64,000 bases of DNA, from the NCBI RefSeq assembly GCF_016026235.1, contig NZ_CP065613.1; one strand, 5' to 3'. The notes beneath the pieces are model-generated. The model was not told the origin of the DNA. It was given only the letters and a program-made list of their open reading frames with translations, and did no database searches. Of the stretch, positions 23,794 to 28,065 are shown piece by piece (the stretch's first letter is position 1; every line of letters starts with the position of its first letter). The stretch comes from Escherichia coli (GTDB lineage Bacteria; Pseudomonadota; Gammaproteobacteria; Enterobacterales; Enterobacteriaceae). Position numbers and translations under genes: made by a program.

Positions 23794-23867
23794 GGCCTGA
23801 TAAGACGCGCCAGCGTCACATCAGGCAATCCATGCCGGATGCGGCGTAAACGCCTTATCCCGCATGG
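23794..23867. repeat. REP/BIME element
   Basis: ggcctgataagacgcgccagcgtcacatcaggc and gccggatgcggcgtaaacgccttatcccgcatg between infB and rbfA. Confidence 0.5.
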
Positions 23868-23880
23868 AACCCTAAAAACC

Positions 23881-26553
23881 TTAAGCGATGGTACGTTGGA
23901 TCTCGATGATTTCGAATACTTCGATCACATCGCCAGTGCGGACGTCGTTGTAGTTCTTAACGCCGATACCACATTCCATACCGTTACGGACTTCGTTAAC
24001 GTCATCTTTGAAGCGGCGCAGGGACTCCAGCTCGCCTTCATAGATAACCACGTTGTCACGCAGAACGCGGATCGGGTTGTGACGTTTAACCACACCTTCG
24101 GTAACCATACAGCCTGCGATGGCACCAAATTTCGGCGATTTGAACACGTCACGAACTTCCGCCAGACCGATAATCTGCTGTTTCAGTTCCGGAGACAGCA
24201 TACCGCTCATCGCCGCTTTCACTTCGTCGATCAGGTTATAGATGACGGAGTAGTAACGCAGATCCAGGCTTTCCGCTTCAATCACTTTACGTGCAGAGGC
24301 ATCAGCACGTACGTTGAAGCCAACCAGGATGGCGTTGGACGCCGCAGCCAGGGTGGCGTCGGTTTCGGTGATACCACCTACGCCAGAACCGATGATCTTC
24401 ACTTTAACTTCGTCAGTAGACAGTTTCAGCAAGGAGTCGGAGATCGCTTCCACAGAACCCTGTACGTCTGCCTTCAGGACGATATTCACTTCGTGAACTT
24501 CGCCTTCGGTCATGTTGGCGAACATGTTCTCGAGTTTAGATTTCTGCTGACGCGCCAGTTTAACTTCGCGGAATTTACCCTGACGATAGAGTGCAACTTC
24601 ACGCGCTTTCTTCTCGTCACGTACAACGGTAACTTCATCACCCGCAGCCGGAACACCGGATAAGCCGAGGATTTCCACCGGAATGGACGGACCCGCTTCC
24701 AGCACTTCCTGACCCAGTTCGTTACGCATCGCACGAACACGACCGTATTCGAAGCCACACAGAACGATATCGCCCTTGTGCAGAGTACCTTCACGTACCA
24801 GAACGGTAGCAACCGGACCACGACCTTTATCGAGGAAGGATTCGATAACCGCACCGCTCGCCATACCTTTACGTACCGCTTTCAGCTCCAGAACTTCCGC
24901 CTGCAGCAGGATAGCGTCCAGCAGTTCATCGATACCGGTACCCGCTTTCGCAGATACGTGTACGAACTGGCTTTCACCGCCCCACTCTTCCGGCAGGATG
25001 CCGTACTGGGAGAGTTCGTTCTTAACGCGATCCGGATCGGCTTCTGGTTTATCGATCTTGTTCACTGCAACCACCACCGGTACCTGCGCCGCTTTCGCGT
25101 GCTGGATTGCTTCGATGGTCTGCGGCATTACGCCGTCGTCGGCAGCAACAACCAGGACTACGATGTCAGTTGCCTGCGCACCACGTGCACGCATTGAAGT
25201 AAACGCAGCGTGCCCCGGGGTGTCCAGGAAGGTGATCATGCCGTTTTCAGTTTCAACGTGGTATGCACCAATGTGCTGGGTAATGCCGCCCGCTTCGCCA
25301 GAGGCCACTTTCGTTGAGCGAATGTAGTCCAGCAGAGAGGTTTTACCGTGGTCAACGTGACCCATGATGGTCACAACCGGCGCGCGCGGTTCAGCCGCAG
25401 CACCCGTGTCACGGTCGCTCATTACCGCCTCTTCCAGCTCGTTTTCACGACGCAGGATAACTTTGTGGCCCATCTCTTCAGCAACCAGCTGTGCGGTTTC
25501 CTGATCGATAACCTGGTTGATGGTTGCCATTGCGCCCAGTTTCATCATCGCTTTGATGACCTGAGAGCCTTTAACCGCCATCTTGTTCGCCAGTTCGCCA
25601 ACGGTGATGGTTTCGCCGATCACAACGTCACGGTTAACGGCCTGAGCTGGCTTCTGGAAGCCTTGCTGCAGGGAAGAACCTTTACGTTTTCCGCCTTTAC
25701 CGCCACGTACTGCTGCGCGTGCTTCTTCACGATCAGCTTTTGATTCAGCGTGTTTGTTGCCTTTCTTCGGACGCGCTGCTTTCGCGTTACGACCACGGCC
25801 ACGGCCGCCTTCGACTTCACGATCGCTTTCGTCTTCTGCCTGGCGAGCATGTTGAGAAGTAGTGACGTGATAATCGCTGGAATCTTCAGTCGGTTCCGCG
25901 TTATCAGTCCATTTGTTTTCTTCCGCCATACGACGTGCTTCTTCAGCAACGCGACGTGCTTCTTCTTCGAGTTTACGACGCGCTTCTTCTTCGGCTTTAC
26001 GCTTGAGCTCTGCAGCTTCCTGCTCACGGCGGGCTTTTTCAGCTTGGGCGTTTTTAGTCATATCGTCTTGTTGATTGCTCACTTTGTCTTTTTCCGCAGC
26101 TTCACGTTTCGCTTGTTCAGCAGCTTCACGCTTAGCTTGTTCTGCGGCCTCACGTTCAGCTTTTTGTTGCGCCTCGCGTTTAGCCGATTCTTCTGCCTCA
26201 CGACGGGCTTGCTCTTCCGCTTCACGCTGCGCTTGCTCTTCCGCTGCAAGGCGTTCAGCCTCTTGCGGATCGCGTTTCACAAAGGTGCGTTTCTTGCGGA
26301 CTTCGATTTGTACCGATTTGCTTTTTCCACCGGTACCAGGAATGTTAAGGGTGCTGCGTGTTTTACGTTGCAGCGTCAATTTGTCCGGGCCTGAATTTTT
26401 CTGATTCAGGTGGTCAATCAAAGTCTGTTTCTCTTGTGCAGACACAGAGTCGTCAGCAGACTTCCGGATACCTGCATCAGCAAATTGCTGTACCAGGCGT
26501 TCCACGGAGGTCTGTCGCTCTGCGGCCAGCGTTTTAATCGTTACATCTGTCAT
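23881..26553 (-). CDS. infB: Translation initiation factor IF-2
   Basis: 890 aa; G-domain motifs ([17 protein letters not shown]); repetitive EAxxQAKREA N-terminal region. Confidence 0.95.
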
Positions 26554-26577
26554 GCTGTTCCTTCCTGCTACAGTTTA

Positions 26578-28065
<1,488 letters not shown>

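Follow-up and report, generated by a model that had tools for sequence, protein, structure and literature searches.

The repeat-rich stretch of infB described here very probably encodes the N-terminal Domain I and linker of IF2, in the form of a helical spacer built from eight-residue units (octads), together with the internal initiation site from which the shorter isoforms of the factor are made. It was analyzed within a 64,000-nucleotide stretch of Escherichia coli DNA (the window; NCBI RefSeq assembly GCF_016026235.1, contig NZ_CP065613.1), in which the interval 26040-26260 corresponds to infB codons 98-172 on the minus strand. The repeat-rich character of this part of IF2 has been described previously, and infB was among the earliest bacterial genes in which initiation at internal in-frame codons was demonstrated; the feature, a charged, repeat-built spacer followed by GUG158 and AUG165, is therefore already known, and is real but ordinary. 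The elements discussed below are as follows.

23881-26553, minus strand: infB coding sequence (IF2-alpha, 890 amino acids, ATG start), from the ORF call, TIGR00487, Pfam, identity to annotated infB and a Shine-Dalgarno (SD) energy of -6.5 kcal/mol
26092-26259, minus strand: octad array, seven units of 24 nucleotides (8 amino acids), codons 99-154, consensus QAKREAEE, from Tandem Repeats Finder (period 24), lag identity and codon shuffles
26091-26097, minus strand: GCGGAAA, the weak SD-like element of the IF2-beta start, 9-15 nucleotides upstream of GTG158 in the last two codons of the last unit, from an anti-SD duplex of -3.5 kcal/mol
26044-26091, minus strand: hinge, codons 155-170, an A-rich (51% A), unstructured mRNA segment, from the AlphaFold2 helix break, base composition and unpaired probability
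26080-26082, minus strand: GTG codon 158, start of IF2-beta (IF2-2), in frame, nucleotides 472-474, the published GUG158
26059-26061, minus strand: ATG codon 165, start of IF2-gamma (IF2-3, beta'), in frame, nucleotides 493-495, the published AUG165
25918-26043, minus strand: a further charged block with a looser repeat, codons 171-212 (AEEEARRK / LEEEARRV / AEEARRM), which all three isoforms contain, from Tandem Repeats Finder periods 21 and 24

The host gene is a typical E. coli infB

The identity of the gene is secure at the level of protein family, sequence and context. Its product matches the IF-2 equivalog TIGR00487 over its full length with 987.9 bits (cut-off 424.4) and carries the Pfam domains IF2_N (twice), IF2_assoc (residues 56-94), GTP_EFTU and IF-2; the same Pfam search gave no family match for residues 99-212. 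The window gene shares 99.9% identity with infB as annotated in E. coli, a gene present in 5,425 of 5,426 complete E. coli genomes, and it stands in the conserved, E. coli-type order metY-rimP-nusA-infB-rbfA-truB, with nusA, rimP and a tRNA-Met gene (metY) upstream and rbfA and truB downstream, as is also annotated in E. coli N68. Leaders of rimP and S15 are likewise present, as is SraG. Compared with infB of E. coli K-12, whose products IF2-alpha, -beta and -gamma are also called IF2-1, -2 and -3, the window shares the gene, its length of 890 amino acids, the operon context and both GUG158 and AUG165. Over a 451-nucleotide region the window matches K-12 derivatives (RP437 and C600, for example) at 99.6% identity, and nothing of substance differs; in this region its nearest counterparts are O157:H7-type alleles, and a few synonymous SNPs separate it from K-12.

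Antisense or out-of-frame ORFs also run through the array, at 25750-26394 and 26075-26404 on the plus strand and at 26079-26249 on the minus strand. These were set aside as genes; nothing was found in their favor, and they were judged to follow mechanically from the codons of which the repeat is made.

An array of eight-residue units precedes the hinge

A sequence-only reading of the region had proposed DNA-level tandem repeats within infB, and this was confirmed both by Tandem Repeats Finder and by lag identity measured against codon shuffles. At a period of 24, the program reported two stretches, 26088-26162 (3.1 copies, score 94) and 26189-26245 (2.4 copies, score 79). Over codons 99-154, nucleotide identity at lag 24 is 0.69 and protein identity at lag 8 is 0.67, whereas protein identity at every other lag lies between 0.07 and 0.26; not one of 20,000 codon shuffles matched the lag-8 protein or lag-24 nucleotide value, including when each shuffle was scored at its best lag between 4 and 14 amino acids. 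The units had been called heptad-like, a description that does not survive these figures: the period is eight (lag-7 protein identity is 0.10), and a hydrophobic a/d seam is absent.

Their near-identity, also asserted from the sequence, holds for the last two or three units of the array and not for the rest. Only the last two units encode identical protein, and these share 21 of 24 nucleotides with three synonymous differences; the last unit reads QAKREAAE. The remaining pairs share 10-18 of 24 nucleotides, so that DNA identity among the units spans 42-88% in full. Because synonymous differences separate even the protein-identical units, the pattern points to an old, diverged, in-register duplication that is held by selection on the protein. 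The eight-residue period is also found well beyond E. coli: of 96 IF2 N-termini from Gammaproteobacteria, 80 have eight as their best lag, including those of Aeromonas, Salinivibrio and Zobellella, as do all 68 with an identity of at least 0.5.

The repeat had been placed at about residues 100-170; the array itself accounts for codons 99-154, while residues 155-170 lie outside it and form the hinge that contains the internal starts. The second charged block has a period of 7-8 amino acids (lag-7 and lag-8 identities of 0.42 and 0.38) and lies almost wholly beyond 26040-26260. A CRISPR array was ruled out, in agreement with the earlier description of these as coding repeats: the 24-nucleotide units are contiguous, without spacers, only 42-88% identical, and in frame inside a conserved coding sequence.

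The octad array is predicted to form a charged single helix

The composition of residues 99-154 fits a charged helix. Charged residues make up 52% of the segment, only one of its 56 residues is hydrophobic, Gly and Pro are absent, and the net charge is -5; opposite-charge pairs are concentrated at i+4 (16 pairs, vs 5-8 at i+1 to i+3). In the second block (codons 171-212), charged residues amount to 64%, and 20 opposite-charge pairs fall at i+4. When the alignment of 96 gammaproteobacterial IF2 N-termini was given to AlphaFold2, the predicted model comprised the known N1 subdomain, a beta-hairpin at residues 58-92, a continuous 61-residue helix at 96-156 (pLDDT 80-89), an eight-residue break at 157-164 (pLDDT below 50 at 159-163) and a second helix at 165-216 (pLDDT 81-87), followed by Gly/Arg-rich sequence of low confidence. 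The pTM of 0.26 indicates no fixed packing among these elements, and the model is a prediction in which helices drawn through low-complexity charged sequence are no proof of a stable helix.

ER/K-type charged single alpha-helices (SAHs) are known from myosin VI and myosin X, caldesmon and other proteins. The IF2 array resembles them in its content of more than 50% Glu, Lys and Arg, in its opposite charges at i/i+4 without a hydrophobic seam, Gly or Pro, and in being a long, isolated and non-packing predicted helix (96-156, and likewise 165-216) between two functional modules. It differs in being rich in Ala and Gln, in its strict eight-residue repeat and in its net charge of -5, and its helix is a predicted one. 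Taking composition and model together, we suggest that the octad array most likely forms a long, solvent-exposed, ER/K-type single alpha-helix, which would act as a spacer between the N-terminal NusA-binding module and the rest of IF2. A literature search linking IF2 to "single alpha-helix" returned nothing relevant, and no paper was found that names the segment an SAH. IF2N and its flexible linker were reportedly the subject of a 2004 paper in Protein Science.

The heptad description would instead lead to a coiled coil, with the region serving as a dimerization or oligomerization domain of IF2-alpha. Beyond the impression of the earlier reader, what speaks for it is that the region is predicted to be a long helix with a high content of Glu, Lys and Arg. 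The periodicity is wrong, however, and in every heptad register at most one hydrophobic residue occupies a/d, so the coiled coil was rejected on both counts; the AlphaFold2 model likewise shows no helix-helix packing. We regard this alternative as highly improbable.

A more serious alternative is that the segment is intrinsically disordered, a low-complexity charged stretch without a persistent helix that acts in RNA-dependent, cold-induced condensates, its octad period being a by-product of duplication history. Two studies treat the whole IF2 N-terminal region as intrinsically disordered and tie it to phase separation (PMC11838494, PMC12919033): the first reports that the N-terminal disordered region drives phase separation, which the beta isoform, lacking residues 1-158, largely loses, and the second that the extensions are prone to disorder. 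Nor did a structure search return a solved structure that confirmably covers IF2 residues 51-294: 1ND9 goes no further than residue 50, and the cryo-EM entries were assessed by their listed sequence, which is full-length. On the other hand, the period of eight has been kept across orders of Gammaproteobacteria despite sequence divergence, the i/i+4 salt-bridge pattern and the lack of Gly and Pro fit a helix, and the predicted helices have pLDDT values of 80-89, against values below 50 in the adjoining, truly disordered segments. Even the condensate study mentions predicted helices "in line with spectroscopy studies" (PMC11838494). Disorder in place of a helix therefore seems rather unlikely to us, although the condensate and helical-spacer readings are compatible and not mutually exclusive.

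Two internal start codons lie in the hinge

Downstream of the octad helix, both internal starts proposed for the shorter isoforms were found in frame in the window infB. GTG158 and ATG165 sit in the hinge, three and ten codons past the last unit and within 26040-26260, at exactly the published positions (PMC3334882, PMC13245402), which bears out the earlier suggestion that shorter isoforms initiate in frame downstream of the repeat. IF2-beta begins within the hinge and IF2-gamma at the first residue of the predicted second helix (165-216); neither form contains the octad helix or the NusA-binding Domain I.

Production of these forms is documented by published data from E. coli K-12, BW25113 and BL21. 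The point mutations g474c and t494c abolish IF2-2 and IF2-3, while a deletion ending 32 nucleotides upstream of GUG158 still gives both (PMC3334882), so that on its upstream side the site needs no more than the last repeat unit. Formyl-dependent N-terminomics has recovered N-terminal peptides for all three starts, including "GUG158 and AUG165" (PMC13245402), a Ribo-RET initiation peak lies within infB (10.1101/520783), and the alpha, beta and gamma forms of IF2 are described in PMC12297416.

A historical alternative attributes the shorter forms to proteolysis of IF2-alpha or to a separate internal promoter and transcript. Nothing in the window favors either, and no sigma-70-like promoter was detected on either strand of 25800-26700. 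Against both stand the loss of the short forms in the two start-codon mutants (PMC3334882), the Ribo-RET peak, the formyl-dependent peptides (PMC13245402), and nucleotide-level conservation of the start codon (GTG or TTG). We can give this explanation hardly any credence. Three terminator-like matches were seen on the antisense strand of the same interval, which is the chance level (1.9 expected).

Internal initiation in infB has parallels in the E. coli genes clpB and mrcB, which likewise combine a primary and an internal in-frame start, yield two proteoforms differing by an N-terminal module, and are detected by Ribo-RET. What sets infB apart is that it has two internal starts close together and that the ribosome-binding site is embedded in a coding repeat, with a minimal SD.

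The internal site combines a weak SD with open mRNA

An SD upstream of the internal starts had been proposed as the check on this initiation, and the outcome was divided: the in-frame starts are present, and the SD is weak in energy, yet invariant across Enterobacterales. No strong SD was found upstream of GTG158 or ATG165, where the pairing energies are -3.5 and -1.9 kcal/mol vs -6.5 kcal/mol at the primary ATG. At GTG158 the pairing is through the GGA core of GCGGAAA, and its energy is no better than that at 26% of infB codon positions; at ATG165 pairing is essentially absent. Accessibility of the mRNA is conspicuous in E. coli, as GTG158 lies in the top 1.8% of the gene, and the window from -15 to +10 around ATG165 is the most accessible in the whole coding sequence (top 0.1%). 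We read the internal site as made by a minimal SD-like GGA together with open, A-rich mRNA, and we infer that the openness of the mRNA, and not SD strength, drives internal initiation. An open mRNA structure at the intracistronic site was reportedly described by Laursen et al. in Genes Cells in 2002.

The internal site is conserved at the nucleotide level

Conservation of the site was assessed with a DNA-pattern scan of species-representative genomes, anchored on an unrelated 10-residue motif downstream, which recovered 120 loci. Of these, 45 are from Enterobacterales; they come from related species and are phylogenetically non-independent, so that the counts given here overstate independence, although the contrast with neighboring synonymous sites remains clear despite this relatedness. 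The IF2-beta start codon, which comes just after the array, is GTG in 43 and TTG in two of the 45, with no other Val or Leu codon used, whereas among the remaining Val codons of these regions the share of GTG is only 23%. The upstream Ala-Glu pair is encoded by GCG-GAA in every case (Ala at codon -5 in 44 loci and one codon closer in the 45th), against a GCG share of 28% among the other Ala codons of the same arrays. In addition, the base following the beta start codon is invariably A, and in 91% of the 45 species the beta start ranks among the 10% most accessible positions.

The equivalent of ATG165 is less constant, being ATG in 26 and GTG in two of the 45 loci and missing in Edwardsiella, in Morganellaceae, where Photorhabdus and Providencia have the GUG alone, and in several further groups. 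When genera are compared, beta starts fall into clusters at codons 158-160, 166-169 and 182-183, which is consistent with the gain or loss of whole octads. Further afield, the arrays of Aeromonas contain a conserved in-frame AUG, a hint in the sequences that isoform production may extend beyond Enterobacterales.

Unit number varies rarely within E. coli

To survey copy number, the 451-nucleotide region was used as a query against 5,425 E. coli genomes, alongside queries with one unit removed or added. The region is at least 99% identical in 5,320 genomes and at least 95% identical in 5,401, leaving 24 below 95%. About 99.5% of the genomes hold the seven-unit length, and at least 17 (0.3%) have three, six, eight or nine units; some eight more of those below 95% fall outside this count and may be indel alleles or merely divergent. 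By span, the variants comprise seven records of 427 nucleotides, eight of 475 nucleotides, one genome with an additional 48 nucleotides and one lacking 96. The nine variant records that were read contain three (N68), six, eight or nine (OkiPb01695) units, all in register and in frame, and all keep GCGGAA...GTG...ATG. Because at least eight different junctions occur, among them three distinct -1 alleles and as many distinct +1 alleles, the events that changed unit number are independent; rare slippage or unequal recombination may add or remove whole units. One six-unit copy, in the Nissle 1917 assembly CP007799.1, is a partial pseudogene; the record has infB at five places, and the copy is probably an assembly problem.

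These natural whole-unit variants, with their many junctions, are what could be cited for a hypervariable VNTR or contingency locus in which frequent switching of copy number varies IF2. A single length, however, prevails almost throughout the species, which is not the pattern of a common polymorphism, the units at 42-88% DNA identity are poor substrates for slippage, and on/off switching is precluded by every variant being in frame. Such a locus is accordingly very hard to credit. The view taken from the sequence that this is not a VNTR holds in practice, with the amendment that rare whole-unit variants do occur in E. coli.

Discussion

Our preferred reading, a helical spacer followed by an internal initiation site, can be set out as a putative mechanism. 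The octad helix would space the NusA-binding module (N1 subdomain and beta-hairpin, residues 1-92) from the rest of IF2, with the hinge at 157-164 leading into the predicted second charged helix at 165-216. At the level of the mRNA, the 3' end of the last unit and the hinge would together constitute a second ribosome-binding site, in which the GGA of GCGGAAA and an A-rich open stretch precede GUG158, with AUG165 seven codons further on. 30S subunits loading at this internal site make IF2-beta and IF2-gamma without the first helix and the NusA-binding module.

The range of unit numbers, three to nine within E. coli and about seven to ten across Enterobacterales, allows a more speculative proposal. 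The array might be a tunable molecular ruler whose eight-residue helical units, each of approximately 1.2 nm, set the reach of the NusA-binding head from the ribosome-bound body in transcription-translation coupling, while the last unit is dual-coded, with GCGGAAA and GUG-A forming the IF2-beta ribosome-binding site. We offer this idea tentatively and consider it doubtful as it stands.

Domain I (residues 1-157, ending with the array) binds NusA (PMC12297416) and promotes cold-induced condensates (PMC11838494). Because both properties have been shown only recently, the spacing between head and body and the ratio of alpha to beta are live questions. What the present analysis adds should be taken as leads rather than discoveries: the octad period across Gammaproteobacteria, the E. 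coli alleles of three to nine units, the nucleotide-level invariance of GCGGAA...GTG/TTG, and the conserved open mRNA at the internal site.

Reading frames crossing the infB repeat array

Besides infB itself, the following open reading frames overlap the octad repeat array:
26079-26249 (-), out-of-frame ORF of 56 aa, TTG start, Lys/Arg-rich, crossing the array
25750-26394 (+), antisense ORF of 214 aa, Phe/Ser/Ala/Arg-rich, overlapping the repeat region
26075-26404 (+), antisense ORF of 109 aa, Phe/Ser/Ala/Arg-rich, overlapping the repeat region

The two antisense frames are free of stops because the repeat uses a restricted codon set, and neither shows any sign of being a gene. The UGA stop of the 56-aa ORF overlaps the IF2-beta start codon (mRNA AAAGUGAGC). 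When this start was compared across species, the base directly 3' of the GTG (TTG in two species) was A in 45 of 45 Enterobacterales, so that the GUGA found here is invariant as regards its final base; this invariance may simply reflect the usual preference for A at +4.

The infB-rbfA spacer and the rbfA start

The spacer downstream of infB is occupied by an RNA element:
23794-23864 (-), naRNA4, a REP-type nucleoid-associated RNA element, Rfam match

Further Rfam matches within the window are SraG, the S15, rimP and greA leaders, and ArcZ. In the mechanically generated list of ORFs, rbfA begins with a TTG (23734, -), and an alternative ATG lies six codons downstream (23716, -). Judged by Shine-Dalgarno strength, the ATG is the likelier start (AGGAG, -7.4 kcal/mol, versus -5.2 kcal/mol for the TTG).

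infB loci in other genomes

A six-unit array in E. coli Nissle 1917 is probably not a real allele:
NZ_CP007799.1, 5112272-5113298, partial infB pseudogene (L005)

Its six units are divergent in sequence, a partial nusA-like fragment adjoins it, and infB occurs at five places in the record; this copy looks like misassembly or foreign sequence.

The IF2 genes of Aeromonas carry an in-frame ATG at a position architecturally equivalent to the E. coli internal starts:
Aeromonas loci with the in-frame ATG: L027, L052, L056, L063, L069, L090, L111, L112, L116

In these genes the octad array is followed by a Gln/Pro-rich linker and then by this ATG, which lies immediately 5' of the second charged helix and is preceded by AAGAGG at -13 to -8. 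An ATG is also found at the corresponding position in Oceanisphaera, Zobellella and a related MAG (L022, L036, L088). Taken together, these candidate starts suggest that shorter IF2 isoforms may occur beyond the Enterobacterales.
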